A stretch of 64,000 nucleotides of DNA from an uncultured Candidatus Binatia bacterium (GTDB lineage: Bacteria; Desulfobacterota; Binatia; HRBIN30), in assembly GCA_964524885.1 (NCBI GenBank), contig CAZGEJ010000008.1, positions 53,462 to 117,461 on the forward strand, read 5' to 3'. Under the pieces are notes generated by a model, which had not been told where the DNA came from, did not search any database, and saw only the letters and a list, made by a program, of their open reading frames with translations. The translations under genes and the position numbers were made by a program. Positions 8,529-62,598 of this stretch are shown here, piece by piece (position 1 is the first letter of the stretch; every line of letters starts with the position of its first letter).

Positions 8529-8530
8529 AG

Positions 8531-8538
8531 CCCCCCCC
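8531..8538 (-). repeat. Homopolymeric G8 tract (C8 on the plus strand) 2 nt upstream of the tpsA ATG, within or replacing the Shine-Dalgarno region
   Basis: Plus strand reads ...ccaccatag cccccccc tg...; on the minus strand this is caGGGGGGGGctATGgtg. Confidence 0.7.
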
Positions 8539-8617
8539 TGTCGCTCGATCGTCGTGCTCATGGATCCGAAATCCCGATTGGTCTTCGTCGCTAGGCTGGC
8601 GTCACGCATGATCGTCC

Positions 8618-14296: not shown

Positions 14297-14510
14297 GTGC
14301 CGTTACCCCCGAGCCCGTGCATGCGAGTGCGAGCGATGACCCGCGCCAGCGGCGGCTGCCTGTTCGTCTGCGTGCTTCGTCATCGCTTCACCCTCCAGGC
14401 CGGCCGGCGCCCCTCTGCCCTGTCAACTGCCCCTTGGCGCGCGGCTGGCGGCTACTCTTCCCCAGTCTGACCGAATCGCTGCGCTACATACGAAAGTCGG
14501 AACCAAAATG

Positions 14511-14560
14511 TCCAGAGAAATCTGACGAAAATCTGACGTTCGCGATTTTGCAAAGGAATT
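14511..14560. promoter_or_regulatory. AT-rich operator-like region in a divergent intergenic region: direct repeat AAATCTGACG x2 (14518-14527, 14530-14539) and palindrome AGGAA-TTTG-TTCCT
   Basis: Local AT-rich island in a 68% GC background, between the divergent genes starting at 14296 (-) and 14828 (+). The same decamer occurs again at 54482-54491, upstream of the 54663 gene. Confidence 0.4.
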
Positions 14561-14688
14561 TGTTCCTGCGGCGCACGGTTTCCCGCCCCTCCGAAGCGTC
14601 GCCGCGCGCCTCCCCAGCCGGTCCGGACCCGCCGCAGTCCCACCCCGAGCGCCCCCCAACGGCAACCAAACGCAGGCGCCGACGCGCC

Positions 14689-14718
14689 CTAAGCCTCAGC
14701 CTCAGCCTAAGCCTAAGC
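14689..14718. repeat. Hexanucleotide microsatellite (CTAAGC/CTCAGC)x5
   Basis: ctaagc ctcagc ctcagc ctaagc ctaagc, read directly in the intergenic region. Confidence 0.9.
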
Positions 14719-14827
14719 CCTCCGGCGCCCAAGCGCCGACCCCACCAATTGTCCGCCGAGCCCCCGCTCTGGTACGGTCGATCGCACCCGGCGGTGCAGC
14801 AAGCCGCTCGGTAGCGGAGGGCTGACT

Positions 14828-30682: not shown

Positions 30683-31144
30683 ATGGAAGTCAGTCAGGAA
30701 CTGCGCGCCAAGTGGATCCAAGCACTGGAGAAGGGCATCCCCTTCGTCGAGCGCACGGGCATCGAGGTGCTGGCGCTGGAGCCGCGTTACGTGAAGATGA
30801 AGCTCCCGTTCGCCCCCAACGTGAATCACGTCGGCATGATGTACGCGGGGGCCCTCTTCACCCTCGCCGAGTTGCCGGGCGGCGCCATCTTCCTCTCGTC
30901 GTTCGACGCCCGAAAGTTCTACCCCATCGTGCGCGACATGCAGATCCGCTTCCTCAAGCCGGCCCTGACCGACGTCACCGTAGAAGTCCGGCTGAGCGAG
31001 GAGGAGGCACGCGACATCGCGGCGCGCGCCGAGGCCGAGGGCAAGGCCAACTACGAATGGAAGTGCGAACTCAAGGACGCCAACGGGGAGATCGTCGCGG
31101 TCACCACCAACCAGTACCAGATGCGGCGGCATCCGGGGCGGTGA
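30683..31144 (+). CDS. Hotdog-fold thioesterase-like protein (PaaI/YiiD_C-like)
   Basis: GGAGG 8 nt upstream of the ATG. Motif NHVGMMYAGALFTLAELPGGAIF resembles the PaaI-type N..G..HGG..A.LAD core. About 154 aa. Confidence 0.55.
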   Translation: MEVSQELRAKWIQALEKGIPFVERTGIEVLALEPRYVKMKLPFAPNVNHVGMMYAGALFTLAELPGGAIFLSSFDARKFYPIVRDMQIRFLKPALTDVTVEVRLSEEEARDIAARAEAEGKANYEWKCELKDANGEIVAVTTNQYQMRRHPGR

Positions 31145-31146
31145 AG

Positions 31147-31188
31147 GCTGAGGCTTAGGCTGAGGCTTAGGCTGAGGCTGAGGCTTGG
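31147..31188. repeat. Hexanucleotide microsatellite (GCTGAG/GCTTAG)x7, inverted relative to the array at 14689
   Basis: gctgag gcttag gctgag gcttag gctgag gctgag gcttgg, immediately after the thioesterase stop codon. Confidence 0.9.
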
Positions 31189-31262
31189 GGGGAATTCCTA
31201 GAGCTGGGACGGATGGGACTCGGCTTGGCTCGATGCCGACCTTTCGGCGGCGGACGGGCGGC

Positions 31263-45546: not shown

Positions 45547-46343
45547 TGGCCATTCACCCGACCGCCGTCGTCGACCCGCGTGCCTCGATCGATCCGACCG
45601 TCGACATCGGCCCGTACGTCGTCGTCGACGGACCGGTCGAGATAGGACCGCGCACCAAGGTCGCGGCGCACGCCGTGCTGTGCGGCCCGACCCGCATCGG
45701 TGCCGACAACCAGATCCACATGGGCGCGGTGTTGGGCAATACGCCGCAAGACCGCGGCTTCGACGGCAGCGACAGTTATCTCGTGGTGGGCGATCGCAAT
45801 CTGGTGCGCGAGTACGTCACCATCCACCGCGGCACGCAGCCGGGCAGCACGACGCGCATCGGCGACGACAACCTGTTCATGGCGACGTCGCACATCGCCC
45901 ACAACTGCACCGTCGGCAACGGCGTGACTCTGGCCAACGGCGCTGTCGTCGGCGGTCACGCGACGTTGGAGGATCGTGTCTTCTTGTCGGGCAACTGTGC
46001 CGTGCACCAGCACGTGCGCGTCGGGACCTTCGCTTTCCTGCGTGGTCTGAGCGCGGCCGACAAGGACGTGCCGCCGTTCTGCATCATCGACGAGATCAAC
46101 GTCGTGCGCGCGCTCAACCGCGTCGGGTTGCTGCGCGCGGGCTTCGATCGCCGGCGTGTCAACGCGCTGCGCCGTGCCTTCCGCATCCTGTTCCAGCGCC
46201 GCCGCAACCTGAAGCTCGCCCTGGCCGAAGTCGAGGCGGAGCCGGTGACCGACGACGTGCAACGGCTGATCGACTTCATCCGCGCCAGCCGCCGCGGCGT
46301 CTGCGTCGGCCCGGCCCACCCGGCGCCGGGCGCGGCGGAGTGA
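45546..46343 (+). CDS. lpxA: UDP-N-acetylglucosamine O-acyltransferase LpxA
   Basis: MAIHPTAVVDPRASIDPTVDIGPYVVVDGPVEIG... with left-handed beta-helix hexapeptide repeats and the typical LpxA C-terminal helical domain. The ATG overlaps the yacG stop codon. Confidence 0.9.
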   Translation: MAIHPTAVVDPRASIDPTVDIGPYVVVDGPVEIGPRTKVAAHAVLCGPTRIGADNQIHMGAVLGNTPQDRGFDGSDSYLVVGDRNLVREYVTIHRGTQPGSTTRIGDDNLFMATSHIAHNCTVGNGVTLANGAVVGGHATLEDRVFLSGNCAVHQHVRVGTFAFLRGLSAADKDVPPFCIIDEINVVRALNRVGLLRAGFDRRRVNALRRAFRILFQRRRNLKLALAEVEAEPVTDDVQRLIDFIRASRRGVCVGPAHPAPGAAE

Positions 46344-46358
46344 AAGCGGCGGCGCGCT

Positions 46359-46468
46359 TCAATCCACCGGTTCGAGGCGGGCGAACTTGAGAATGAGTTT
46401 GCGGATGCCGACCGAGCGGAACTGCACGGTCGCCTTACGCTGATCGCCGCTACCCTCGAAGCCGCGCA
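46359..46468 (-). pseudogene. Duplicated 3'-terminal fragment of uvrD (last ~35 codons), non-functional
   Basis: Encodes ...GFEGSGDQRKATVQFRSVGIRKLILKFARLEPVD, identical to the C-terminus of the intact uvrD at 47695. Homology ends at 46468. Confidence 0.7.
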
Positions 46469-46572
46469 GGCACGCCAACACGTCGATCTCGAACACCCGC
46501 CGCAACAACATGCCCACGCCACATGGCGCGGGCATGTTGACGTTGTCCAGCAACACCCATATCTGCGGGCAT

Positions 46573-46839
46573 ATGAAGACGACGATTGAGCTGCCGGACG
46601 CACTCTTCCATCGAGCGAAGGTGTTGGCGGCGCAGCGGAAGACGACGTTGAAGCAATTGGTGGTCGAAGGGTTGGAGCGGGTAACGGCCGGCCCCGCGCC
46701 AACCGCCAGCGCCAAACTGACACGCGAGCAGAAGCGCTATTTCGCCATCGACGCAGATGGCGTTCCCGTCCTCAAAAAGCGCACTGACGGGATCAGCAAC
46801 GACATGGTGAACCGCATGCGCGACGAACTCGGAATCTGA
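46573..46839 (+). CDS. vapB: Type II toxin-antitoxin VapB-family antitoxin
   Basis: MKTTIELPDALFHRAKVLAAQRKTTLKQLVVEGLERV...; the stop overlaps the vapC start (TGATG). Confidence 0.75.
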   Translation: MKTTIELPDALFHRAKVLAAQRKTTLKQLVVEGLERVTAGPAPTASAKLTREQKRYFAIDADGVPVLKKRTDGISNDMVNRMRDELGI

Positions 46840-47237
46840 TGCACCTGCTCGATGTCAACGTGCTGATCGCGCGGGCCGACGCGAGCCATCCGCATCACGA
46901 CGCAGCAGCACAATGGATGAGGCGGCATGCTTCATCCGGCTGGGCCACGTGTCCACTGACGGAAAACGGCATGCTGCGCATTCTTGGCCAAGCGGCCTAC
47001 CCCGGTGGCACAGGGAGTCCGGACGGTGCTTTGGTCAGCTTGAGGAGCATCCTCGCGATTCCCGGCCATCGCTTCTTGGCCGACGATTTCTCTTTGCCCG
47101 ATGGCATTCCTTCTCTCCGCGGGGCTACCTCCAGCCAATTGACGGATCTTTACCTCTTGGCGTTGGCCGTGAGGCATGGAGCGCGATTCTTGACGCTCGA
47201 CCTCGGATCAATCCCGCGATGGTCCCTGGTGGAGTGA
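46839..47237 (+). CDS. vapC: Type II toxin VapC (PIN-domain ribonuclease)
   Basis: MHLLDVNVLIARADASHPHH... with the PIN acidic residues; LTDLYLLALAVRHGARFLTLD. Confidence 0.8.
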   Translation: MHLLDVNVLIARADASHPHHDAAAQWMRRHASSGWATCPLTENGMLRILGQAAYPGGTGSPDGALVSLRSILAIPGHRFLADDFSLPDGIPSLRGATSSQLTDLYLLALAVRHGARFLTLDLGSIPRWSLVE

Positions 47238-47292
47238 CGGCATACGTACAGATCAACGCGTAACCCGCGCACCAACGAGGGACGGATCACAT

Positions 47293-47679
47293 CGCCGCAA
47301 GACCGCGGCTTCGACGGCCTTGTCGGGCAACTGTGCCGTGCACCAGCACGTGCGCATCGGGACCTTCGCTTTCCTGCGTGGTCTGAGCGCGGCCGACAAG
47401 GACGTGCCGCCGTTCTGCATCATCGACGAGATCAACGTCGTGCGCGCGCTCAACCGCGTCGGGTTGCTGCGCGCGGGCTTCGATCGCCGGCGTGTCAACG
47501 CGCTGCGCCGTGCCTTCCGCATCCTGTTCCAGCGCCGCCGCAACCTGAAGCTCGCCCTGGCCGAAGTCGAGGCGGAGCCGGTGACCGACGACGTGCAACG
47601 GCTGATCGACTTCATCCGCGCCAGCCGCCGCGGCGTCTGCGTCGGCCCGGCCCACCCGGCGCCGGGCGCGGCGGAGTGA
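47293..47679 (+). pseudogene. Duplicated, internally deleted 3' fragment of lpxA
   Basis: 47293-47318 matches lpxA 45733-45758, then jumps to 45983 onward (a 224-bp deletion). It encodes ...SGNCAVHQHVRIGTFAFLRG...GAAE with a V-to-I substitution relative to the intact copy. Confidence 0.75.
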
Positions 47680-47694
47680 AAGCGGCGGCGCGCT

Positions 47695-49938
<2,244 letters not shown>

Positions 49939-50130: not shown

Positions 50131-50991
50131 ATGGCTGCAGCGACGGGTTTGACCATACGATTCTGGGGGGTACGCGGGAGTTTCCCGGTGCCCGGTCCGA
50201 GTTGCGCCGAAGTCGGCGGCAACTCCTCGTGCGTCGAGGTGGAGGCCGGCGGCCAACGCATCATCTTCGACGCCGGCACCGGGCTGATCGGCCTCGGGGC
50301 GCGCCTGATTCGCCGCGGCAAGCCGCATCCGCTGCACCTGTTCCTCAGCCACCTCCACTACGACCACATCGAGGGCATCCGCTTCTTCAAGCCGCTGTAC
50401 CGCCCGGCGTGGGCGTGCACGATCTACGGACCGGACAGCCGGCGGCCGGACCTGGCGGAGTTGCTGACGCAGAACATGTCGGGGCGCTTCTTCCCGGTCG
50501 ATTTCCGCAAGCTGCCGGCGCAAGTGACGGTGCGCCCGTTGGGCAAGAGCGACACGGTGGTGCTGCCCGGCAGCCCTGAGGTGCGCATCGAGACGGAGTA
50601 CAGCGCGGCGCATCCGACCTTCGGCGTGCAGTTCTACCGATTGACCTGCGGCCGGCGTTCGATCGTTTATGCCACCGACGTCGAGGCGCCCAAGGGTGGT
50701 TTCGACGAAGTGGTGCGCTTCGCCAAAGGGGCCGACGTGTTGATCCACGACGCCCAGTACACGGACCAAGAGTATTTCCGCGAGGTGGACAACCGACAGG
50801 GGTGGGGTCACAGCACCGTGCGCATGGCGGCGGAAGCGGCCCGCGCCGCCGAGGTGGGGCAACTGGTGTTGTACCACCACGACCCGACGCGCACGGACAC
50901 GCAGATGCCGCCGCTCCTCAAGCTGGCGACGAAGATCTTCCCCAACACGATCCTGGCCCGCGAAGGCCTGAGCGTCCGCCTACGAGCGTGA
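50131..50991 (+). CDS. MBL-fold metallo-hydrolase
   Basis: HLHYDH motif (LSHLHYDHIEG) with an upstream GGAGGAGGGG. It is the genuine C-terminal part of track ORF 48925..50991; an alternative start is 50101. Confidence 0.7.
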   Translation: MAAATGLTIRFWGVRGSFPVPGPSCAEVGGNSSCVEVEAGGQRIIFDAGTGLIGLGARLIRRGKPHPLHLFLSHLHYDHIEGIRFFKPLYRPAWACTIYGPDSRRPDLAELLTQNMSGRFFPVDFRKLPAQVTVRPLGKSDTVVLPGSPEVRIETEYSAAHPTFGVQFYRLTCGRRSIVYATDVEAPKGGFDEVVRFAKGADVLIHDAQYTDQEYFREVDNRQGWGHSTVRMAAEAARAAEVGQLVLYHHDPTRTDTQMPPLLKLATKIFPNTILAREGLSVRLRA

Positions 50992-51027
50992 GCGCGCCTG
51001 CCATGGCGGCGTGAGCGTCGTTGGTGA

Positions 51028-51189
51028 GGTCGGCGACGCGAAACGAGGCTAGTGCGGCTAGGCGACGCTCGTCAGCCTCTGCTGGTGATCTTGGTCGGCG
51101 GTAGCACCAAACAACGTCAGTCCGACGCGATCGCCGCGGCGCTGGAGTGTTGGCAGGACTATCGGAGAAGAAAGAAGCGGGAGATGTAG
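51028..51189 (+). pseudogene. 3' remnant (~53 codons) of an HI1419-type addiction-module killer (RelE/HigB-like) gene; the 5' part is absent
   Basis: The frame ending in TAG at 51187 translates as ...ARQPLLVILVGGSTKQRQSDAIAAALECWQDY, matching the conserved C-terminus of TIGR02683-type killers (..LIILLCGGDKSTQ..DI..A..L...). It has no start codon and abuts the MBL hydrolase stop codon. Confidence 0.5.
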
Positions 51190-51191
51190 AG

Positions 51192-51515
51192 ATGGCACTG
51201 ACGCGAGATTTTCGCGACACCGTTCTCGAGCGGGCGCAGAGCGAACCGGCCTACCGGCGCGGCCTTCTGACCCGCGGGGTGGCGTTCATGGTGAGCGGTG
51301 ATGCGGAGGACCGCGCTGTCGGCCGGGCGCTGATCCGCTACTACATCAACGCGACGATCGGTTTCCAGCGACTCGGCGACGACCTCGGGTGCAAACCGCA
51401 GAGCTTGATGCGGATGTTCAGCAGCACCGGCACCCCCCGGCTCAACAGCCTCGCCGATGTCGTTCACCGCCTGCAGGAGCACGAAGGCATCCACCTCGAG
51501 GTTGCCGCGAAGTGA
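51192..51515 (+). CDS. Addiction-module antidote protein, HI1420 / HigA-like family (DNA-binding)
   Basis: MALTRDFRDTVLERAQSEPAYRRGLL...KPQSLMRMFSSTGTPRLNSLADVVHRLQEHEGIHLEV matches the TIGR02684-type antidote pattern (..SRESLYRALS.NGNPRLDTLLKVL.ALGL.L.V). Confidence 0.65.
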   Translation: MALTRDFRDTVLERAQSEPAYRRGLLTRGVAFMVSGDAEDRAVGRALIRYYINATIGFQRLGDDLGCKPQSLMRMFSSTGTPRLNSLADVVHRLQEHEGIHLEVAAK

Positions 51516-51747
51516 CGTTCAACGATTACCGTCGGTGCTCGAGGTGCATGAAGGTGGCCAGCCACCCAATTGCTGCCGAGGACCCCAGACACTCCCGACA
51601 GTGTCGTGAAGTGTAAGTGTCTTGCTTGTCCTACATTGCGCACAAAGGTAACGCCTAGCCGATAGTACGCCGTAGCGAGCTGTGGTAGGCGGGAGAGCCT
51701 TGGTCCAAGGGAACGAAGTCGCTCGCAGATCCTGGGGCCGCGTCGTA

Positions 51748-52206
51748 ATGGTCGTGCTTGGTTCCTGCATGTCGGTCCTGGCGTCCTGTGATTCCGCCAG
51801 TTCACCAAGCTCGGCAGCGCCGACAGCAAGTCCGAGCGCGACAGTAGCCGGAGTACACTCGCCGACCGCAAGCCCTGGCGCAACTTCGACAATGACGCCC
51901 GATCCAACACCAACACCCACCCATTCCCCGCCTTCGTTCGAGGTGTGCTTGGCAGCAAAGGCAAGGAATCGAGAAGACTGTCTTCGGAGCGGGGGCCAGT
52001 GGACTCGCAATTCAACATTCACCGACATCTGCGTCTGCCCGACCGGAGAAGGCGACGTTCCTTGCGAAAGCAACGCTCAGTGCCTGGCGGGCTGCGTTGC
52101 TTCTGCTCGGCGCGATTGTGTAGGCGTCTCGTTCTTTTGCGCCTCGCAAGCGCCGCTCGTAGGCTGCTTCTGCAGCCCTGGGGAGCGATTCGTTATTTGC
52201 GATTGA
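51748..52206 (+). CDS. Cys-rich lipoprotein (lipobox VLASC), unknown function
   Basis: MVVLGSCMSVLASCDSASSPSS... followed by a Thr/Pro/Ser linker and a Cys-rich C-terminal domain; it lies in a lower-GC stretch. Confidence 0.5.
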   Translation: MVVLGSCMSVLASCDSASSPSSAAPTASPSATVAGVHSPTASPGATSTMTPDPTPTPTHSPPSFEVCLAAKARNREDCLRSGGQWTRNSTFTDICVCPTGEGDVPCESNAQCLAGCVASARRDCVGVSFFCASQAPLVGCFCSPGERFVICD

Positions 52207-52230
52207 TTTCAAAACGGGGTAGCGTAACGC

Positions 52231-52256
52231 CAAGTGCTCGATAGGTTTCGAGAAAT
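52231..52256 (+). repeat. 26-bp direct repeat, copy 1 (CCAAGTGCTCGATAGGTTTCGAGAAA); copy 2 is at 54099-54124
   Basis: The two copies differ at 2 positions (cgatAGgttt versus cgatGAgttt) and flank a 1.85-kb segment. Confidence 0.8.
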
Positions 52257-52446
52257 GATCCTGCCGGACGTCAACGTCCTCGTGCACGATTACAACTCCA
52301 ACCTTCCGGCCGCCACTTCACGAACCTGCAGGCGGCGCTCAAGGTCGCGGCGCGCATCCGCTTCGCCTGGCGAAGCAGTTTCGAACGAGTGTGAAGGCAT
52401 CAGGTACCAATGGAACCTGCGCGGCGAAGGTTTCGGGCTCCCGTAG
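52234..52446 (+). pseudogene. Possible degraded vapC-like (PIN) toxin remnant
   Basis: Starts MILPDVNVLVHDYNSN (a PIN N-terminus-like sequence) and then loses coherence. It is preceded by an 11-nt spacer after a ...PSAR* mini-ORF end, which is the typical antitoxin-stop/toxin-start geometry. Confidence 0.3.
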
Positions 52447-53180
52447 TTGTATTCCTGGGGCTGGCAGCAATCGCCTCGGGGATGGCGGCGATCTATACGC
52501 TCCGATTCCCGGTGTACTTGTGGTTGAGCCATCTGTGGAGCGAGTCAGGGGCACGCGCTGCCGTGGGGTATGCCGCGATTGAAGCACCGAACATCGAAGC
52601 GGAATCGTTGTACGTATACGATTCGTTCCCGTATCCTCGCGTTGACATTACGAATCCGCGTTTCCAGCTCGGCGTGGTCGAATCGCCTGCTCTGTCCGGA
52701 CAGACGCCGGTGGAGATCGCTGTCAACCGCGCAAAGGCCTATCTGCGGGCGATCGCTCCGGAGATCGGACTCGCGCCGTTCGAGAGCTTGCGCGAAGTAT
52801 CCGTCTCCGCAGGGGCGCCGCCCTACAACTTCGTGGTCGTGCTCCAGCGGACGGTGGATGGTATCGATGTCGAGGGTGCGACTGCAATCGTCACGATCGG
52901 GCCGAACGACGAGGTCACAGGAGTCGTTGTCGCCCTGGTCAGACTGGATGACTCGGTCGCGTTGATTACCAGTGAGAGTGGTCTGAGCAAGAGCTCGATC
53001 GTTCGAGGAATGGCGTGGCTCACGGGTCAGTCGCCTGAAAGTATGTGGTGCGAGCGATACTTATCGGTGCAGGCACCGCATCTCCGGTGGAGGGTTACGT
53101 TCGGGCTGGAGGTCGTCACTGTAGATGCGATCACGGGTGCCTTCATTAGCTACGAACTGGGTCCGGGGTTCCTTCCGTAG
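52410..53180 (+). CDS. Hypothetical secreted or membrane-anchored protein (256 aa)
   Basis: ORF with an N-terminal hydrophobic segment VVVFLGLAAIASGMAAIYTL; no recognisable motif. Confidence 0.4.
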   Translation: MEPARRRFRAPVVVFLGLAAIASGMAAIYTLRFPVYLWLSHLWSESGARAAVGYAAIEAPNIEAESLYVYDSFPYPRVDITNPRFQLGVVESPALSGQTPVEIAVNRAKAYLRAIAPEIGLAPFESLREVSVSAGAPPYNFVVVLQRTVDGIDVEGATAIVTIGPNDEVTGVVVALVRLDDSVALITSESGLSKSSIVRGMAWLTGQSPESMWCERYLSVQAPHLRWRVTFGLEVVTVDAITGAFISYELGPGFLP

Positions 53181-53398
53181 CTTCAACAGGGGTGGCTGGA
53201 CAGTCCGAGCATCGGACGTAGTCCTCGCAGAAGTGGTCGATGCTGCCGTGATGGCGTCGGCTGCCGTGTTCGGTGCGCAAGGAGCTACTGCCGCGATCAT
53301 GCTACGTCCGACAAATTCCGTTCCCGGCGGAAACGCAGCTTGTACGGGCTGTCGGCCCAGTCTTCAGAGAGCCGGACAACGATCGCGACCACCCGCCA

Positions 53399-53701
53399 TC
53401 ATGCCGCCTCGGTCCGTTTCAGCGGCTTGATGTCGAGGATCGTCCGGGCGCTCGGCAGCGTCTTGAGATCATAGGCGGCCTGAAGGTTCAGCCAGAACTC
53501 GGCGCTACCGCCGAAATAGCGAGCGAGGCGGGCGGCGGTATCAGCCGTGACAGCGCGCCGCCCGAGCACGATGTCATTGATTCGCGACGCCGGCACCCGC
53601 AGCGCCATCGCCAGCGCGTGCGGGCTCATCTGCAGCGGCACCAGAAAGTCCTCGCGGAGAATCTCTCCGGGATGAATCGGACGCATACGATTTGTGGGCA
53701 T
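53399..53701 (-). CDS. higA: HigA antitoxin (XRE-family HTH)
   Basis: MPTNRMRPIHPGEILREDFLVPLQMS...INDIVLGRRAVTADTAARLARYFGGSAEFWLNLQAAYDL is the canonical HigA sequence; the start is taken at MPTN. Confidence 0.85.
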   Translation of the reverse strand: MPTNRMRPIHPGEILREDFLVPLQMSPHALAMALRVPASRINDIVLGRRAVTADTAARLARYFGGSAEFWLNLQAAYDLKTLPSARTILDIKPLKRTEAA

Positions 53702-53715
53702 GGTGTTCTCCCTCC

Positions 53716-53991
53716 TCAATGGTAATCCACGATCTCGACGTCCTCCGCGGCATCGGTCCAGCGGAAGCAAATCCGCCATTGATCGTTGATGCGGATGCTC
53801 CACTGGCCCTCCCGATCACCGGAGAGCTTCTCCAGTCGGTTGCCCGGCGGCGCGCGCAGATCACCGAGCTGGGTGGCCGCATCCAGCGCTTGGAGCCTGC
53901 GTTCGGCGACCGACCGAAACGCGCGAAATCGGGCAGGACACTTGCCGCCGTAGAGCGCCTCGGTGTCCTTGCCCCGGAAGGTCTTGATCAC
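53716..53991 (-). CDS. higB: HigB toxin (RelE/ParE superfamily plasmid-maintenance killer)
   Basis: VIKTFRGKDTEALYGGK...LDAATQLGDLRAPPGNRLEKLSGDREGQWSIRINDQWRICFRWTDAAEDVEIVDYH matches HigB. A GTG start is assumed; an in-frame ATG at 54075 would add 28 aa. Confidence 0.8.
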   Translation of the reverse strand: MIKTFRGKDTEALYGGKCPARFRAFRSVAERRLQALDAATQLGDLRAPPGNRLEKLSGDREGQWSIRINDQWRICFRWTDAAEDVEIVDYH

Positions 53992-54098
53992 GCCGGGAAG
54001 GTATACCGCGTTGCGGTAAGTGTCTAGCGGTATGCACGCGGGGGAGGGGTCAGGGTACGCGACGCAGGAGCGCATCCAATGGCGAATCGGGGTGGCAC

Positions 54099-54124
54099 CA
54101 CTCCAAGTGCTCGATGAGTTTCGA
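54099..54124 (+). repeat. 26-bp direct repeat, copy 2 (CCAAGTGCTCGATGAGTTTCGAGAAA)
   Basis: See copy 1. It is also preceded by a short ORF ending ...PSAR* (MANRGGTTPSAR*). Confidence 0.8.
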
Positions 54125-54662
54125 GAAAGGCGCGTGCCGGGGCTTGCGTTTGAGCTTGGGGGCGCGTTTCCGGGGGCGAAATGGCGGCGCAAGGTCCGCG
54201 GCGGTGGGGTGAATTCGCCGTGTCGGTGATCAGCGGGGCGAACGAGGTCGGTGCAGCGGCGTTCGACCATGGCGGTGCTCCGTGCCTGCGTCCAGCGTAC
54301 GACGTTCCCTTCTGATGCTGCCAAGGCGGACTCGGCGAAATCTAAGGCTCCTGGCTGCCACTGCGACTGTGCGCAGCGGAATGCGCGGCGCTTCGCGGCC
54401 GACGCTCGCTGCGAAGCCATCGGCTCGGGTCGACGCTCATCGGCGGCGAGAGCGCGTGCCGATGTTCTGGGTTGATCTTTTAAATCTGACGTGCGAGCAG
54501 TCCTCCTGAAGTATCTTGTAAGAAAAACTGATTCGGTCGCACGTCTTGCCGACGTGTTGCCCTAACGACAGGGCCTCCGCGGGGGAGGTCAGGCGCATCA
54601 CCGACGAAGCGCGTAGTCATCGGTTCCCGGCGACCACATCGCTTCGTAAAGGGAGGGATTCC

Positions 54663-57600
54663 GTGACCTCGACCCGAAACCTACTCTTCTTCTGGTTGCT
54701 GCTGGCCGCCGCTGCCCCCGCCTACGCAACGAGCTACACCTGGACCGCCGGAGGATTCGTCTCCGGGTCCGCAACCGTGTGGAGCAATCCCGCCAATTGG
54801 AACCCCAACGGCGTACCTGGACCCGGAGATGATGTCGTCATCGACGCCACCATCACCTCGGAGAACGTCTATCTCGACGTCAACGTCACCGTCCGCAACT
54901 ACACCCAGAGCGGACTCAACTTGTACGCAGATGGGAACCTCACCACGACCGGAACCCTGACGTGGCTGGGAGGCCAGATGCAGCGGGCCGGGCTCGCCAC
55001 CGGCGACATCAACGCCAACGGCCCGGTCCTCATCAGCGGCAGCGCATCCAAGATCCTCGGCCGCACATTCAATTGTAATGCCGGAGCGACGTGGACCGGT
55101 TCCGGCGACATCTTTCTCGGGCAGAACGTCGACAACGCAGTGCTCAACATCGCTGCTGGCACCGTCTTTGAGATCCGAGGTGATGCCACGTTCAAGGGCT
55201 CGCTGCTGAGCAACGGCAAGACGGGAACCATCAACAACGCCGGCACCTTGCGCAAGACGACCGCTACCGGGATCACCAAGGTGGAGTCACCGGTCGTCTT
55301 CAACAATACCGGCGCGACCGACATTCAGTCGGGAACCTTGGATCTGACCACCAACGCCACCTACAGCACCGGCACCTTCGGCGCCACGGGCGGCGGGGTG
55401 GTCGGCTTCAGCACCGGTACCCACACCATCCAACCGCCGGCGGCGTTCAATGGCAATACGCTGGTCAACGGCGCGACGGTGAGTTTCACCGGCACTTCGA
55501 ATGCCGTCGGCAGCCTGAGCGTTTCCTCGGGCACGCTGAACCTCAACACGACCGGCACCCTAACCGCCACGAGCATCGCGCCGGCCGGTGGCACGACGAA
55601 TTTCATCGGACCCGTCAACGCCGGGACCGTCAACGCGAGTGCCGGCACTTCGGCGATTACCGGTGCGCTCACCGCCGCGAACCTACAGCTGAGCGGCACC
55701 GCTACGGTCAACTTCACGGCGAGCACTCCAGCCCTGACAGACGTCAGCCTCTCGGGCGGAACTCTCACCTTCGATACCAGCGGCACTGCAGTCGCCGTCG
55801 GCAGCCTCACCCAAAGCGGCGGCACGCTGCAGGGCGCTGACGACGTCAACGTCACCGGTGCACTCAGCTATTCGGCAGGCACGATGGGCGGCACCGGCGC
55901 CACCAACGCCAACGGCGCGTGGTCGCTCAGCGGCACCGGAACCAAGACTCTTCGTCGTACCCTCAACAGCAATGCCGATGCGACTTGGATGAACGACGGC
56001 ACGCTGACCCTCGGAAACGGCGCGGTCGGCGGCGTGCTCAACATCGCCAACGGCACCACCTTCGACGCTCAGGGCAACGGGTCTTTCGCACTCGGAGCCA
56101 CCAGCGCCACGATCAACAACAGCGGTACCTTCCAGAAGAGCGTCGGTTCCGGCACCACCACGGTCGGCACGTCCGTCGTCTTCAACAACACCGGTGCCGT
56201 CGACGTCCAGACAGGCACCTTGTCGATCGGCTCCCCCGGAAATACCTATTCCGGAACCTTCGACGCCACCGGCGCGCAGTTGCGCCTCACCGCTGGCACG
56301 CACAACTTCGGCGGCGCGGCCTCGGTGACCGGTGGCCTGACCGTCGCTGGCGCGACCGTCAACTTCAACGGCACAGGCGCCACTCTCGGCAGCGTGACCG
56401 TCAGCAGCGGTACCCTCAACGTCTCGCCGAGCAGCGCCGTGGCCATCAGCAGCGTGAGCGTCTTGGGCGGTACGGCAAACTTCACGACGGCTGGGACGAC
56501 CATCGACAGCATCGGCATCACCAACGGAACCCTGAATCTCAGCACTTCGACCGCAACCAGCGCCACCAGCCTGACGATGAGCGGCGGAACACTGTCCGGC
56601 TCCGCCACTCTCCATGTATCCGGAGCGTTGGCTTGGTCTGGCGGCCTCATGAGCGGCACCGGCACGACCAACGCCAACGGGGCCTGGACCATGAGCGGTG
56701 TCGGGTCCAAGAGTCTTGGGCGAACGTTGAACAGCAATGCATCCGCCATCTGGACCGGGAGCGGCCCACTGGCTTTCAACGGCGGCGTGCTCAACATCGC
56801 GAGCGGCACGGTCCTCGACACCCAGGGCGACGCATCTATCTCGTTTAGCGCCGTGAGCGCTACCGTAAACAACAGCGGAACGTTCCAGAAATCGGGGGGC
56901 ACCGGCACCACCGCCGTCAACGCCAACGTCGTCTTCAACAATGGCGGCGTGGTGGACGCGCAAACCGGCACGATCACTTTCGGCAGCGGCGGCGGAACGC
57001 ATACCGGCTCCTTCGACGGTACCGGCGCGACCCTCAGCTTCACCGCCGGTACTCACACCTTCAGCGGCAATGCATCGGTGAGTGCCGCCAACTTCAGCGG
57101 CGCTACCGCCAACTTCACCGGTACCAGCGCGACTCTGAGCGCCATCACGCTCAGCGGCGGTACGGTGAACTTCAGCACCAGCAGTCCGTCGGTGAGCATC
57201 GCCGGATTGACGCAGAGCGGTGGGACGCTGAACGGGGCCGACGACGTCAACGTGAGCGGTGCGCTGTCGTGGACCGGCGGGACGATGAGTGGTACCGGCG
57301 CGACGAACGCCAACGGTACGCTCTCGATCTCCACGAGCACGGCGAAGATCCTGGGGCGTACCCTGAACAGCAACGGCACGGGAACATCGGGCACCTCGGT
57401 AAACCTTGGATTCAGCAGCGGCACCCTCAACATCGCGAGCGCGACGACGTTTACCGCGGATGCCGCGAGTTGGACTCTCGCGTCGACGGGCGGCACGGTG
57501 AACAACGCGGGAACCTTCATCAAGTCGACGGCGGGTGGCGCTGCGACGCTGACGTTCGCGTCCGGGATTGCCTTCCACAACAGCGGAACGGTGGATGTAC

Positions 57601-60242
57601 AAAGCGGCTCGCTAACGCTCCCCACCAGCGGCACGCACTCCGGTTCATTCGATGCCACCGGAGCGATGGTCACGTTCAGCGGCGGCACTCATACCTTCAC
57701 GGGCGGGAACGCGCTCACGGGCAGCTCGACGTTCAGCGGCGCCACGGCGAACTTCAACGGAACGACCTCGACCCTCGAAACCGTAACGCTCAGCAGCGGG
57801 ACCCTGCAAGGTTCGGGGACGGTAGACATTGGAACATTGACCTGGAGCGGCGGCACGATGGCCGGCACCGGTGTCACGAATGTGAACACTGCGTCGACGA
57901 TCAACGGCAGTGCGAGCAAAACTCTCGCTCGAACGCTGAACAGCAAAGGCACCGGCAACTTCACGCAAGGCAGCCTGGTGTTCGGCAGCAGCGGTGTCGG
58001 TGGCGTGCTCAACATTGCGGCGGGTACGACATTCAGTGTTTCCGGCGCACAGTTTCCGTCCCCATCGATCAGCCTCGGCGCGGTCAGCGGGGTGATCAAC
58101 AACGCCGGTTCGTTCGTCAAGTCGAATACGTCCGGCAGCGTGGCGATCGGTGCTGGTGTCGCGTTCAACAACAGCGGCACGGTCGACGTGGATGCCTCCG
58201 GTCTCATCCTGAGCGGCGGCGGCACCCATGCAGGATCCTTCGATGCTACGGGCCGGACCATCGAGTTCAACGGCGGGACCCATACCTTCACCGGGAGCGG
58301 CACTGTGATCGGCGGCGTCACCTTCACCAATAGCGGAACCTTCGACTTCACGGGCAGCGGGGCGACGCTCGGCAACGTCACCCTCAACAGCGGTACGGTG
58401 AGCCTCAACACCAGCAGCCCCACCGTCAGCGCCGCAAGCTGGATCCACAACGGCGGGACTCTCCAGGGCGCCAATCACCTGACGCTGAGCGGTGCGCTGA
58501 CCTGGTATGGTGGCTCGATCGTGGGTGGCGCGGATCTCACGGTCAACGGGGCTGCCACCATCGCCTTTTCGACGACGCTGGCGCGCAGGCTCAACGTCAA
58601 CGGGCCGGGCGGCACGCTCTCTCACACCCTCACCATGGGCGTCGGCGGCGTCGGCGGCGAACTCCATATCGGACCGGCCGGGGTACTCGTGGTTCAAGGT
58701 ACCACCGGGTCGATCAACTTCGGGGACACCAGCGCCGCAATCCACAATGCCGGCGTGCTCCAGCGCAGCAACGATACAGGCACGACCACCGTCGGCCCAG
58801 GGGTGACCTTCGAGAATTCCGGCACCGTTACCGCGACGCTCGGCACCCTGAACGTCGGCGGCGCGTACTCGCAGACGGCGGGGACGACCAGCATCAACGG
58901 TGGCTCCATCGTCGCGACGGGTCCCGTGAACGTGCAGGGCGGAACGATCGCGGGCTCCGGATCGCTGACGATGGACGTCGTCAATAGCGGCGGCACGCTG
59001 AGCCCCGGTGCATCACCAGGCTTGCTCACGTCGACCGGCGGTTACGGCCAAGGCACTGCTGCGACATACACGGTCGAGATCGGCGGCCTCATCGCGGGAA
59101 CGGAGTTTGACCAGACGACGTGGACTGCTCCCGTCACTCTCGACGGTACTCTCAACGTGAGCGTGATTTCGCCGTTCGTGCCAAACGCCGGCGACACCTT
59201 CGAGATCATGACCTTCCCGTCGCGCACGGGTACCTTTGCCACGGTCAACGGATTGATCGTCGGCAACGGCAAGGGCTTCACTCTCGACTATGGGGCCACC
59301 GCACTGAGGTTGACGACCATCGAAGAGATCTGTGGCGACTCGACCGACAACGACGGCGATACTTTGATCGATTGCCTCGATCCTAAATGCGCCGATGCGC
59401 TCTACTGCGTTGGGACCGCCACCCCGACGCAGACGCCGACTCCGACCATCACAGAGACCCCGACGCATACCGCGACCGTGACCCCGACCGAGGCCGCGAC
59501 GGCGACGCAAACGGCCACCGAGACGCCAACGGAGACGGCGACGCACACCGCGACGTCGACGCCGACCGAAACGCCGACCCCATCAGCGACCGACACCCCG
59601 ACAGCCGCGCCGACCGATACCGCGACTCTGACACCGTCTGCTTCTCCGACCGCGTCTGCTTCGCCGACACCGGCGGTCGGAACGAGCTGCCCTGCGGCGC
59701 CCGTGACCTGTCGCGACGGCGGCAAGGGATCGGTCGCGCTGAGCTACGATTCCGATCCCACAAAGCGCAAGTTTTCGTGGAAGTGGGGGAAAGGTCTGCT
59801 GACGAGCGAACAAGCGGATTTCGGCAATCCGGTGAGCGGAACACCGCGCTACACTCTCTGCCTCTACGACGAGAGTGCCGATATCCCTACGCTGGCGATG
59901 GAGCTCGAAGTGGACGCTCAGGGTACTTGCGACGACAAGCCGTGTTGGAAGCTAGTTTCCGACAAGGGCTGGGCTTACAAGAGCAAGAGCGGCAACGGCA
60001 GTGGAGTGCTGAAGGTCGCCTTCAAGGGTGGCGACGCCGGCAAACCTTCGCTGCGGGTATCCGCGAAGGGCGCGAGCCTGCCGCTGCCGACGCCGCTCAG
60101 CGGTAGCGAGTCCTTGGACCTCGACAGCAACGTCATCGTGCAGTGGCACGTCAGCGCCCCGGCCGGTTGCTGGCAGAGCGAATTCTCCCTCACGGGCGTG
60201 AAGAAGAACGACGGGGAAGACTTCAAAGCGGTCGCGCCGTAA
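54663..60242 (+). CDS. Large secreted beta-helix-like repeat protein (1859 aa): five ~290-aa tandem repeats, a CxDxDxDGD metal-binding-like Cys motif, a Thr/Pro linker and a C-terminal Cys-containing domain
   Basis: GTG start with GGGAGGG upstream and signal peptide LLFFWLLLAAAAPAYA. The repeated block is ...GTGxTNANGxWxxSGxGxKxLxRTLNSNAxAxWxxxGxLxxGNGAVGGVLNIAxGTxF...NNSGTFQKSxGxGTT.... Then comes EEICGDSTDNDGDTLIDCLDPKC, followed by (TPTxT)n. Confidence 0.75.
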   Translation: MTSTRNLLFFWLLLAAAAPAYATSYTWTAGGFVSGSATVWSNPANWNPNGVPGPGDDVVIDATITSENVYLDVNVTVRNYTQSGLNLYADGNLTTTGTLTWLGGQMQRAGLATGDINANGPVLISGSASKILGRTFNCNAGATWTGSGDIFLGQNVDNAVLNIAAGTVFEIRGDATFKGSLLSNGKTGTINNAGTLRKTTATGITKVESPVVFNNTGATDIQSGTLDLTTNATYSTGTFGATGGGVVGFSTGTHTIQPPAAFNGNTLVNGATVSFTGTSNAVGSLSVSSGTLNLNTTGTLTATSIAPAGGTTNFIGPVNAGTVNASAGTSAITGALTAANLQLSGTATVNFTASTPALTDVSLSGGTLTFDTSGTAVAVGSLTQSGGTLQGADDVNVTGALSYSAGTMGGTGATNANGAWSLSGTGTKTLRRTLNSNADATWMNDGTLTLGNGAVGGVLNIANGTTFDAQGNGSFALGATSATINNSGTFQKSVGSGTTTVGTSVVFNNTGAVDVQTGTLSIGSPGNTYSGTFDATGAQLRLTAGTHNFGGAASVTGGLTVAGATVNFNGTGATLGSVTVSSGTLNVSPSSAVAISSVSVLGGTANFTTAGTTIDSIGITNGTLNLSTSTATSATSLTMSGGTLSGSATLHVSGALAWSGGLMSGTGTTNANGAWTMSGVGSKSLGRTLNSNASAIWTGSGPLAFNGGVLNIASGTVLDTQGDASISFSAVSATVNNSGTFQKSGGTGTTAVNANVVFNNGGVVDAQTGTITFGSGGGTHTGSFDGTGATLSFTAGTHTFSGNASVSAANFSGATANFTGTSATLSAITLSGGTVNFSTSSPSVSIAGLTQSGGTLNGADDVNVSGALSWTGGTMSGTGATNANGTLSISTSTAKILGRTLNSNGTGTSGTSVNLGFSSGTLNIASATTFTADAASWTLASTGGTVNNAGTFIKSTAGGAATLTFASGIAFHNSGTVDVQSGSLTLPTSGTHSGSFDATGAMVTFSGGTHTFTGGNALTGSSTFSGATANFNGTTSTLETVTLSSGTLQGSGTVDIGTLTWSGGTMAGTGVTNVNTASTINGSASKTLARTLNSKGTGNFTQGSLVFGSSGVGGVLNIAAGTTFSVSGAQFPSPSISLGAVSGVINNAGSFVKSNTSGSVAIGAGVAFNNSGTVDVDASGLILSGGGTHAGSFDATGRTIEFNGGTHTFTGSGTVIGGVTFTNSGTFDFTGSGATLGNVTLNSGTVSLNTSSPTVSAASWIHNGGTLQGANHLTLSGALTWYGGSIVGGADLTVNGAATIAFSTTLARRLNVNGPGGTLSHTLTMGVGGVGGELHIGPAGVLVVQGTTGSINFGDTSAAIHNAGVLQRSNDTGTTTVGPGVTFENSGTVTATLGTLNVGGAYSQTAGTTSINGGSIVATGPVNVQGGTIAGSGSLTMDVVNSGGTLSPGASPGLLTSTGGYGQGTAATYTVEIGGLIAGTEFDQTTWTAPVTLDGTLNVSVISPFVPNAGDTFEIMTFPSRTGTFATVNGLIVGNGKGFTLDYGATALRLTTIEEICGDSTDNDGDTLIDCLDPKCADALYCVGTATPTQTPTPTITETPTHTATVTPTEAATATQTATETPTETATHTATSTPTETPTPSATDTPTAAPTDTATLTPSASPTASASPTPAVGTSCPAAPVTCRDGGKGSVALSYDSDPTKRKFSWKWGKGLLTSEQADFGNPVSGTPRYTLCLYDESADIPTLAMELEVDAQGTCDDKPCWKLVSDKGWAYKSKSGNGSGVLKVAFKGGDAGKPSLRVSAKGASLPLPTPLSGSESLDLDSNVIVQWHVSAPAGCWQSEFSLTGVKKNDGEDFKAVAP

Positions 60243-60458: not shown

Positions 60459-61540
60459 TCATAGGCTGGCGACGGAGTACTGCCGGTACTGCGTGGCGCA
60501 GACGCTCGTTCCCGCCAGACAGACCGTGACGGAGAAGTCCACCACGTCGGCCTCGTAGAGCTGGAAGTCCGCCGCCGAAGTCGTGTTCCCGTTCGCGTTG
60601 GCGGCCAGCAGGAAGTCCGGGCATCCCGTGTTCGTCCCCGACGTGCATGTCCAAAAGTACTGCAGCGGCTGGCCGCAACCGCTGAGCGAGGCCCCCGCAT
60701 CCAGGTGCAGGAGCTGCGGCAGGCGAATGCCGGAGGCGGGAGTGAGAGAGGCCGCCACGCCGCAGGTGCAGACCGTCGGCTCCCCACTGCAGTCCCACCC
60801 AGGCTCGCTGCCGCAGGAGGCCGAGCACCCGTCGTCCGGATCGATGTTGTCGTCGTCGCACAGCTCGGTGCCGCGGACCAGTCCGTCGCCGCAGATGGGC
60901 GAACAGACCGACGGGCCGCTGCCCACCGGGCAGGTCCAGCCGGTCTCGCGCACGCAGTCCGACGCGCAGCCGTCGCCGTCACTGGCATCGCCGTCGTCGC
61001 ACTGCTCGTCGCTGGCGACGATGCCGTCGGAGCATGTGGACAGGCAGCTCGACGGCTCGCCGGCGCAATCGTAGCCCGTCTCGGGCGCACACGATGCCGA
61101 GCAGCCGTCGCCGGAGGCTGGGTCGCCGTCGTCGCAGTCTTCCGACGGCGCGATCACGCCGTCGCCACACACGCGGGCCACGTCGTCGCCGACCAGCGAC
61201 GAGCATTCGCCGAGATACGTGTCCACGGTAGTGGCGTCGCCGTTCACCGCGCAGGCCCCCGACGCTTCCGCCTTCGCGAACGCATTGAAGAACTTCTGCT
61301 CGGCCTTTGCCACACAGGCCGCGTCGACGCTCGTGCCGGCCAGTGCCGCTTTAGCGCGGCACTTCGCGATGGACGCGAAACGCTTGCCACTGGCGTTCAG
61401 CTTCGCGGCTACGCAACGGGCGGCTGCGCTCGGCGCGGCTGAGACCGACTTCAACGGCATCGTGAACAGTTGCGCGGACAGCACCGCGCCGCACATCGCG
61501 GCCACCTTGGCCGCGAACTTGATTCGCGTGGAATTCATCG
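60459..61540 (-). CDS. Secreted Myxococcus-type cysteine-rich repeat protein (360 aa)
   Basis: Start at MNSTRIKFAAKVAAMCGAVLSAQ (signal peptide). Three tandem repeats follow: CGDGVIAPSEDCDDGDPASGDGCSASCAPETGYDC, CSDGIVASDEQCDDGDASDGDGCASDCVRETGWTC and CGDGLVRGTELCDDDNIDPDDGCSASCGSEPGWDC. Confidence 0.7.
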
Positions 61541-61836
61541 AAGTGCCCCCTTCTCGATCCGATTTCGGGAAAACACGCAAGGCAGCGTCGGCGACGCCGC
61601 GGTCCGATCCCTGGACCGCACCTGCTGCCCGGTCCGCCGGCGCCGCGATGGGCGGCGTGGCTGCACGTTTCCTTCCGGCCCTGGCGAAGGCGGAGTTCAG
61701 CATCCCGGGCGAGCCGTGTCGAGAGCCGATCGACGGCGCATCCCTGCCGGCCCCCGGACCGTTGCGCCGCCACGCACGGCGGCGCGCCCCCATCACCGCG
61801 TGCAGCAACCCGCGGGGCACGCTACGTTCCGGCCCC

Positions 61837-62598
61837 ATGAGCGAAGAGGTTCCCGTCCACCACATGTCCTCGTTCGATGGCGCATCCCTCGCGTGGCGCG
61901 AAGTCGGGGAGGGTCGCCCCGTGCTCATGCTGCACGGGCTGTTCAGCCACGCCGCCCTGAACTGGCTGAACTTCGGCACGGCCGGCGTGCTGGCCGACGC
62001 CGGCTTCCGCGCGATCCTGCCCGACTTCCGCGGCCACGGGCACAGCGACTCCCCTCGCGACGCCGCGGCCTGGCCGGCCGACGTGCTGGCGCGCGACATC
62101 GAGCACCTCGTGGCGCACCTCGGCCTCGGCGACTTCGACCTCGCCGGCTATTCGCTGGGCGCCCGCACGGCGGTACGCCTGGTGGTGCGCGGCCTTGCGC
62201 CGCGGCGCCTCGTGCTGTCCGGCATGGGCACGGAAGGCATCGTGCACTCGGGCGCGCGGGTCGAGTTCTTCCTGCGCGCCATCGCGACGCGCCACACCGC
62301 GAAGCCTGGCACGCCGGAATGGCTGGCCGGGCAGTTCCTGAAGAGCAACGGTGTGGATCCGGATGCCGCCACTTGCCTGCTGCGCTCGCTGGTGCAGACG
62401 AAGGTGGAGGAGCTGGCGGCCATCACCACGCCGACGCTCGTGCTCTGCGGCAAGGACGACCGCGACAACGGATCGGGCGCCGAGCTGGCGAAGCTCCTTC
62501 GCGACGGCCGCTTCGTCGAGGTGCCCGGCAACCATATGACGGTGCCCACCAGGCGCGACTTCGCGCTGGCCATCCGCGACTTCCTGAGCGAACCGTAG
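61837..62598 (+). CDS. Alpha/beta-fold hydrolase
   Basis: PVLMLHGLFSH (HG oxyanion motif) and the nucleophile elbow GYSLGAR; about 253 aa; the real start is internal to track ORF 61219..62598. Confidence 0.75.
   Translation: MSEEVPVHHMSSFDGASLAWREVGEGRPVLMLHGLFSHAALNWLNFGTAGVLADAGFRAILPDFRGHGHSDSPRDAAAWPADVLARDIEHLVAHLGLGDFDLAGYSLGARTAVRLVVRGLAPRRLVLSGMGTEGIVHSGARVEFFLRAIATRHTAKPGTPEWLAGQFLKSNGVDPDAATCLLRSLVQTKVEELAAITTPTLVLCGKDDRDNGSGAELAKLLRDGRFVEVPGNHMTVPTRRDFALAIRDFLSEP

Follow-up and report, generated by a model that had tools for sequence, protein, structure and literature searches.

Background

How chromosomal toxin-antitoxin (TA) modules move when no plasmid, phage, transposon or integron carries them is poorly understood. 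For the restriction-modification (RM) gene complexes, which are addiction modules of another kind, Nobusato et al. are said to have reported in 2000 (Gene 259:99) a mode of insertion that is accompanied by a long target duplication. Furuta et al. 2010 (PMC2853133) described RM insertions that lack mobility genes, have atypical GC content and lie between direct repeats of 46–423 bp, and also allelic substitution of one RM system by another at the same locus. Small foreign genes, complete TA operons among them, are also present in the superintegron arrays of Vibrio, where TA modules occur as cassettes (PMC2654758). We analyzed a 64,000-nt stretch (hereafter "the window") of contig CAZGEJ010000008.1, from an uncultured Candidatus Binatia bacterium, in which an islet rich in TA genes (51000–54660) carries two copies of a 26-nt direct repeat, and we compared it with a 20.7-kb locus of a related genome. 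Three TA modules in these two related genomes (higBA in the islet, vapBC about 46.5 kb into the window, and a mazE-PIN pair in the related genome) are bracketed by direct repeats of 56, 484 and 46 nt, respectively, which are made of, or homologous to, host-lineage sequence.

The likeness to the RM insertions with long target duplication is that a small addiction pair without a mobility gene lies between direct repeats of host sequence longer than 30 bp, and that the composition of the insert is atypical here as well. As in the cases collected by Furuta et al. 2010, the inserts are shorter than 20 kb and contain an addiction-type gene pair and no mobility genes, and their direct repeats are of variable length (56 nt at 79% identity, 46 nt at 83% and 484 nt at 99.4%). 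Unlike the RM cases, the cargo here is type II TA (higBA, vapBC and mazE-PIN), the islet repeats are old and have no known empty site, and only the 46.5-kb case is clear-cut. Our literature search found no paper that applies long target duplication to type II TA modules. Chromosomal integron arrays resemble the islet in holding small, often foreign genes and TA operons with a related repeat after each, and in a content that varies between relatives; unlike such arrays, the islet has only two or three repeats, which show neither an attC hairpin nor R''/R' boxes, and there is no intI among the main open reading frames (ORFs) of the 33–64 kb part of the window. Islands that carry an integrase also consist of a lower-GC insert between direct repeats, but here there is no integrase among those ORFs and no tRNA target, and the repeats are imperfect and do not coincide with the composition boundary. 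The TA genes themselves belong to known families. The higBA pair is like other HigB/HigA systems (a RelE-superfamily toxin with an HTH-XRE antitoxin) and exceeds the curated cut-offs, and the antidote (antitoxin) gene at the left of the islet belongs with the HI1419/HI1420-type RelE/ParE pairs, its relatives being paired with TIGR02683 toxins, although the islet pair has lost most of its toxin gene.

A vapBC module between duplicated lpxA and uvrD sequences

The clearest of the three cases, a fresh duplication, lies outside the islet, 5 kb away, where two 484-nt direct repeats, identical at 481 of 484 positions, enclose an 852-nt insert with a vapB gene and a vapC/PIN gene (PF01850, E = 1.9e-7; coordinates of this and the other features are in Table 1). 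An intact lpxA gene stands to the left and an intact, convergent uvrD gene to the right, and each faces a truncated duplicate of itself. Because both intact and truncated copies of lpxA and uvrD are present, the repeats are the duplicated target, and this is an unambiguous instance of a host target duplicated around a minimal TA module without a mobility gene. The final 26 nt of the insert are identical to positions 45742–45767 within lpxA, so the original duplication was probably longer and was followed by a 215-nt deletion. An independent Logan contig (L068, found in two samples) corresponds to positions 46407–47348 and spans both junctions of the insert, and look-ups with LpxA and UvrD for an empty site or for longer contigs returned nothing on record.

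The direct repeats of the islet

A first-pass annotation of the window had placed two 26-nt repeats with 24 of 26 identical positions at 52231–52256 and 54099–54124. The identity holds and is far beyond chance, but the coordinates were slightly off; the copies in register occupy 52230–52255 and 54103–54128, with 1873 nt from start to start. Matches to the 26-mer with at most three mismatches number two in the window, versus none expected from shuffles, and ungapped similarity between the two places extends to 56 nt (52212–52267 and 54085–54140, 79% identity; local alignment of copy 1 with copy 2, z = 18 in 1000 shuffles). Mismatches are scattered over the 56 nt, and the similarity fades gradually, without a sharply bordered identical core. 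Independent Logan assemblies from about a dozen runs (ERR3494947–74) extend over both copies with 100% identity to the window, which excludes an assembly artefact. The tiny ORFs noted earlier as ending in ...PSAR* are indeed there, since a short frame ends in ...TPSAR* at both copies; the only two differences within the core exchange TAG for TGA at that stop, and the same two differences also lie within the spacer of a small palindrome, CTCGA-N6-TCGAG.

Exact-pattern scans of genome and metagenome collections with the core (CAAGTGCTCGATNNGTTTCGAGAA) gave 0 matches, and there was no match in the plasmid collection. No Rfam family was found at the repeats, the sole Rfam match being a sub-threshold match to a CRISPR repeat elsewhere. 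Neither copy has a terminator-like or promoter-like site (the one terminator-like match of that scan, 51114–51128, is at another place in the islet). Folded with DNA and RNA parameters, neither strand of any copy does better than its shuffles (z from -1.45 to +1.46). Inspection of all six reading frames of the repeats gave no match to a protein family.

Several known kinds of element were considered for the repeats and set aside. A coding reading has no family match behind it, and the ...PSAR* stop is not kept in the homologous sequence of the related locus described in the next section. An RNA element is opposed by the lack of an Rfam match, of a terminator or promoter pattern and of a significant fold. 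A sigma-54 promoter at the TGGCAC of copy 2 has the wrong spacing, and the motif is absent from copy 1 (judged by eye). A Tn3-type end (GGGG...) does not fit copies that are directly oriented, lack TAAG and remain similar past the GGGG. For a subterminal hairpin of the IS200/IS605 kind the stem is only 5 bp long and is not conserved in the related locus.

Different TA modules between homologous flanks

The gene hyp256, which lies between the two repeats, has a single relative among 5.8 billion proteins, P0002 (81% amino acid identity, from JGI metagenomes), and the 20.7-kb locus that carries P0002, which we call L058, represents the only related genome found for comparison with the islet. Its composition is that of the window's host (GC 0.68, and 0.88–0.91 at the third codon positions, GC3, of housekeeping genes). 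Three stretches are common to the islet and L058, with order and orientation kept. The leftmost (52341–53279, equivalent to L058 9861–10763, 84% DNA identity) comprises the last codons of a PF04075 gene, hyp256 and about 100 nt downstream of it; the PF04075 gene upstream of hyp256 is intact in L058 (9531–9890) and only a stub, alignable to the end of the intact gene, in the window. The middle stretch is a flanking sequence, U, at the left side of the TA slot, which aligns to L058 13684–13748 with z = 18, and whose L058 copy stands just after a gene for a 265-amino-acid protein (no Pfam match) and upstream of mazE-PIN. When the conserved right half of U (CTCGCNGANGTGGTCGATGCTGCC) was used as a scan pattern, seven matches came up, and beyond the pattern all of them are unrelated. 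The third stretch, U-prime, is repeat copy 2 with its extension to the right; its positions 54089–54181 correspond to L058 14530–14622 (ungapped, 70% identity, z = 17), and the L058 homologue starts 20 nt past the stop codon of the PIN toxin gene.

What lies between U and U-prime is not the same in the two genomes. The window has higBA on the minus strand, whereas L058 has an unrelated MazE-type antitoxin gene and a PIN toxin gene on the plus strand (PF04014 at 2e-9 and PF01850 at 2e-12), and U and U-prime are 842 nt apart in the window, versus 782 nt in L058. The TA cargo thus differs between homologous flanks in two genomes. The L058 mazE-PIN pair is moreover flanked by a 46-nt direct repeat of its own (13674–13717 and 14510–14555, 38 of 46 positions identical; z = 9.2, with a score that 0 of 1000 shuffles reach), whose right copy starts at the vapC stop codon.

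Copies 1 and 2 of the islet repeat are nearer to each other (79%) than copy 2 is to its L058 homologue (about 65% over the same stretch), which fits a duplication that postdates the split of the two lineages and took place in that of the window. Direct comparison of U with copies 1 and 2 is not significant (z = 0.4–1.1), and U is probably a strongly diverged third relative of the repeat, linked to it only transitively.

The higBA unit has a different history from its surroundings. Both of its proteins exceed the curated cut-offs of their families (HigA, TIGR02607 at 6e-32, 109.3 bits versus a cut-off of 47.7; HigB, PF05015 at 6e-17, 62.3 bits versus 27), in agreement with the earlier reading of an intact higBA, and they are typical proteins in which nothing is unusual. 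HigA belongs to a family of more than 7000 relatives that occur in varied contexts, including plasmids of several phyla, and none of the four relatives' loci compared (L071–L074) has the window's flanks. Over 681 nt the unit shares 93% identity with a contig of a stromatolite metagenome (L069; SRR3310977, PRJNA315555) whose flanks are unrelated to the window and which has no U-like sequence or site of the repeat type; such identity between unrelated flanks indicates recent horizontal transfer of the bare TA operon with its promoter region, and the higBA unit is a discrete, horizontally moving block. No short target duplication is present at the edges of the unit. Copy 2 starts 10–20 nt from its edge, as set by the L069 identity, and belongs to the host-lineage flank and not to the cargo. 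The open frame of HigB continues far upstream (53716–54420, minus strand), and public gene calls of 119, 159 and 184 amino acids named HigB cross repeat copy 2; these long calls are an annotation artefact, since the family match is confined to the last 92 amino acids.

Only hyp256 and higBA lie in the 1.87-kb segment between the repeats, and the segment is of at least two origins, because the PF04075 remnant with hyp256 (84%) and higBA (93%) match different genomes. The proposal that the repeats are recombination junctions of one acquired cassette is therefore right in that they sit at the seams of blocks with different histories, but what they enclose is not a single cassette.

Composition and gene content of the islet

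Between 51000 and 54660 the GC content is 0.623, versus a mean of 0.665 for the 64-kb window, and the minimum of the whole 64 kb falls in the islet at window sizes of 1, 2 and 3.6 kb, so that the drop in GC content noted in the first-pass annotation is real. The low-GC core (51520–53400) has a value of 0.604. GC3 is 0.87–0.89 in the flanking host genes (uvrD-like, 47695–49938, minus strand; MBL-fold hydrolase, 50188–50991), and in the islet it is 0.83 for the antidote gene, which is near the host value, 0.60 for the lipoprotein-like ORF, 0.70 for hyp256 and 0.77–0.79 for higBA; these values support the view that the islet is compositionally foreign. Its limits are the end of the MBL-fold hydrolase gene at 50991 and the start of a giant repeat-protein gene at 54663. 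In contrast to what had been suggested, the 26-nt repeats are not the limits of the low-GC stretch, whose left end lies some 700 nt before copy 1. The nearest relatives of the MBL-fold protein in a species-representative collection are in metagenome-assembled genomes of Candidatus Binatia, with 58% and 48% identity and different gene neighbours, and a search for synteny by way of this neighbouring gene found none with these nearest relatives.

Table 1. Positions of the features discussed in the text (window coordinates)
Feature	Position	Strand	Remarks
484-nt direct repeat, left copy	45983..46466	.	lpxA 3' end, spacer, uvrD/pcrA 3'-end fragment
852-nt insert	46467..47318	+	vapB 46573-46839, vapC/PIN 46839-47237
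484-nt direct repeat, right copy	47319..47802	.	truncated lpxA 3' fragment, 3' end of intact uvrD/pcrA
Toxin gene C-terminal stub, RelE/ParE family (HI1419-type)	51052..51189	+	directly after MBL-fold hydrolase gene; N-terminal approximately two thirds missing
Antidote (antitoxin), intact, 107 amino acids	51192..51515	+	partner of truncated toxin
Lipoprotein-like ORF	51748..52206	+	lipobox-like VLASC, Pro/Thr-rich linker, Cys-rich end; ORFan
Repeat copy 1	52212..52267	+	core 52230-52255; starts 6 nt past stop of lipoprotein-like ORF
VapC (PIN) N-terminus-like start, candidate	52255..52290	+	ATG + 11 codons MILPDVNVLVH, read in sequence
PF04075 (F420H2-dependent quinone reductase-like) gene 3'-end remnant	52305..52370	+	...KVAARIRF; stop codon lost
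hyp256	52410..53180	+	256 amino acids, membrane-anchored, weak FTP/PepSY-type motif, atypical composition
Flank U	53180..53247	+	starts at hyp256 stop codon; left side of TA slot
higBA unit	53389..54068	-	HigA 53399-53701, HigB 53716-53994, approximately 74 nt upstream (promoter) region
Repeat copy 2 with extension U-prime	54085..54181	+	core 54103-54128; copy-1 homology ends 54140; right side of TA slot

TA modules and their debris (higBA, and a toxin stub with its antidote) do dominate the gene content, as had been noted. The antidote has 1219 relatives at E <= 1e-3, and its identification is indirect. TIGR02684 matches it weakly (E = 0.046; <= 1.6e-4 for 4 of 30 relatives), and its homologue in locus L070 (62% identical) lies 3 nt downstream of a toxin gene (109 amino acids; TIGR02683, E = 1.4e-26). 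The stub just upstream of the islet antidote gene matches positions 67–95 of the 95 of NCBIfam TIGR02683 (E = 0.018), and by tblastn its positions 51082–51162 match residues 75–101 of the L070 toxin (59%). The antidote can thus be kept as such, but it had been called an orphan, and the remnant of toxin residues 75–101 beside it makes this a toxin-truncated module and not a lone antitoxin; loss of most of the toxin gene is how a chromosomal TA module is expected to end. By itself the islet is an ordinary decaying TA hotspot, which is a common kind of region.

The presumed lipoprotein gene has lipobox-like features, but it is uncertain as a real gene: it has no homologue at E <= 1e-3 among the 5.8 billion proteins, its GC3 is low, and gene callers chose antisense ORFs in its place on the Logan contigs. 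It is the sole long sense ORF in a 0.7-kb stretch (51516–52206) that has the lowest GC of the region, and the public gene calls there are antisense ORFs (51464–52018 and 52012–52287, both minus strand). The candidate VapC-like start to its right has its first 13 nt still within the repeat homology and, as a query of only 11 codons, matched nothing in Pfam or NCBIfam with the threshold relaxed to E <= 10. The hyp256 protein matches PF07504 with E = 6.9e-6. Downstream of its gene, comparison with L058 10696–10763 gives a hint of an unannotated or decayed frame, on the plus strand (53125–53430, ...VVLAEVVDAAV...) or antisense (53061–53300, minus strand), for which no family match was found.

Elsewhere in the window there are very large repeat-protein genes (1–8594; 8618–14296, minus strand; 54663–60242, plus strand). 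One of these large repeat proteins is encoded with eleven tandem 186-nt units, and the 1860-amino-acid protein encoded on the right side of the islet combines a signal peptide with repeated modules of about 250 amino acids and a Pro/Thr-rich linker. The gene at 60459–62099 encodes DUF4215 repeats. Two simple-sequence tracts (14687–14722 and 31143–31190; CCTAAGCCTCAGCC...), 16.4 kb apart, are 89–94% complementary to each other.

Origin of the repeats

We hold, with about even confidence, that the islet repeats, in a decaying TA hotspot, are what remains of insertion that needed no integrase and came with long target duplication. On this reading the islet would be a hotspot between two host genes into which addiction modules and other foreign pieces were spliced and then decayed; the 26-mers would be the best-preserved core of 56–93 nt of host-lineage sequence, U-prime, that forms the right edge of the TA slot, and the two copies would be an old direct duplication of it. 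DNA with the arrangement PF04075 fragment, hyp256, U and a TA module may have recombined beside a resident U-prime so that U-prime came to stand on both sides. The likeliest route would need no integrase and would leave an extended part of the target in two copies; perhaps the simplest concrete form of it is that a circularised fragment entered the chromosome by a single crossover. The modules on the left (the toxin stub with its antidote, and the ORFan) would represent further, separate events. That the insertion event itself produced the duplication, and by which molecular route, we infer from the arrangement of the sequences.

A number of points weigh against this reading. No empty site was found, the nearest genomes having only 48–58% identity in the MBL-fold protein and no synteny, so that a target once present in the islet as a single copy is inferred. 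The repeat family consists of five or six known copies in two genomes, with no more in the public collections searched, and since these copies come from 64 kb plus 20.7 kb of sequence the repeat may have a wider distribution that is independent of TA modules. The event is old, at 79% identity, so that later changes may have altered its junctions; the 37 nt that separate copy 1 from the PF04075 remnant are unexplained; and U connects to the 26-mer of the first-pass annotation through intermediates only. To our knowledge, the mechanism behind long target duplication has not been settled even for RM systems.

The main rival, which we think unlikely but the most serious of the alternatives, is that the repeats are passively copied paralogous sequence, leftover intergenic or 3'-flanking DNA or a decayed gene start that was copied along with its neighbours, and that TA modules simply landed nearby; the repeats would then say nothing about insertion. 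In the window U comes after the stop codon of hyp256, and in L058 after that of the 265-amino-acid protein gene, as if a gene and its flank had been duplicated together, the similarity decays gradually as it does in old paralogs, and six of the nine mismatches between 53214–53279 and L058 10698–10763 fall on every third base (counted by eye), a hint that the flank is or was coding. On the other hand, none of the reading frames of the repeats matches a protein family. All significant copies are found no more than about 200 nt from a TA module or remnant, always as one of a direct pair around it, and the 484-nt case couples TA insertion with target duplication in this same genome. It is also doubtful, and a good deal more so than passive copying, that the repeats are a functional element kept by selection, such as a binding site at the palindrome, a 3'-end or terminator element, or the end of a ...TPSAR* peptide. 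The two core substitutions do sit in the 6-nt spacer of the palindrome and exchange one stop codon for another in frame, but the L058 homologue has neither the palindrome nor a stop at that position, the Rfam, terminator, promoter and folding results given above are all negative, and the distances to the downstream genes are unequal (143 nt versus about 520 nt), with the L058 copy facing the 3' end of a convergent gene. Chance similarity or an artefact of assembly is practically negligible given the two matches where none is expected, the z of 18 and the independent assemblies that are identical across both copies.

A site-specific cassette system, in which the repeats would be att-like or attC-like sites of an integrase-driven island or of an integron-like array with its recombinase outside the window, is in our judgement quite improbable. 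In its favour, one or more ORFs are followed by a related repeat right after the stop codon three times in the window (counting U) and twice in L058, the two genomes have different TA cargo between flanks that are conserved, and one of the TA operons is inverted, as happens in chromosomal integrons. Against these stand the absence of any recombinase, integrase or transposase domain among the main ORFs of 33–64 kb (those of 43–50 kb read as ccmABC, yacG, lpxA, uvrD and the MBL gene) and of a tRNA gene in the 64-kb window, the occurrence of the higBA unit in the L069 contig without such a site, and the repeats themselves, none of which folds beyond its shuffles. An integron cassette was accordingly rejected for want of intI among these ORFs and of a 57–141 nt hairpin fold, and the attC boxes R'' (RYYYAAC) and R' (GTTRRRY) are not conserved, AAC being present in only two copies and without a complementary GTT box. 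An island between attL and attR was rejected for want of a recombinase, a tRNA target and a sharply bordered identical core, and the description of the repeats as att-like in the first-pass annotation did not survive these comparisons. Inverted repeats were found neither around the higBA unit nor around the segment bounded by the repeats, and a transposon, insertion sequence or miniature inverted-repeat transposable element was rejected because there are no terminal inverted repeats, no short target duplication, and two copies in the window with none in the public collections searched. A bolder idea is that U and U-prime are docking sites of an undescribed cassette-exchange system, particular to this uncultured lineage, that needs no hairpin or nearby integrase and swaps whole TA operons (higBA, vapBC, mazE-PIN) into fixed slots or, more generally, that type II TA modules have a dedicated mechanism of moving by themselves, in which tens to hundreds of target bases are duplicated; we regard it as a long shot.

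Conclusions

The three TA modules considered here show the footprint that was described for RM systems, which like them are classic addiction modules. Should a systematic survey find that TA modules often have this footprint, a shared route of spread that needs no recombinase would be indicated. The islet by itself gives a modest hint that insertion with long target duplication is open to TA modules as well, and the 484-nt case makes the hint stronger.

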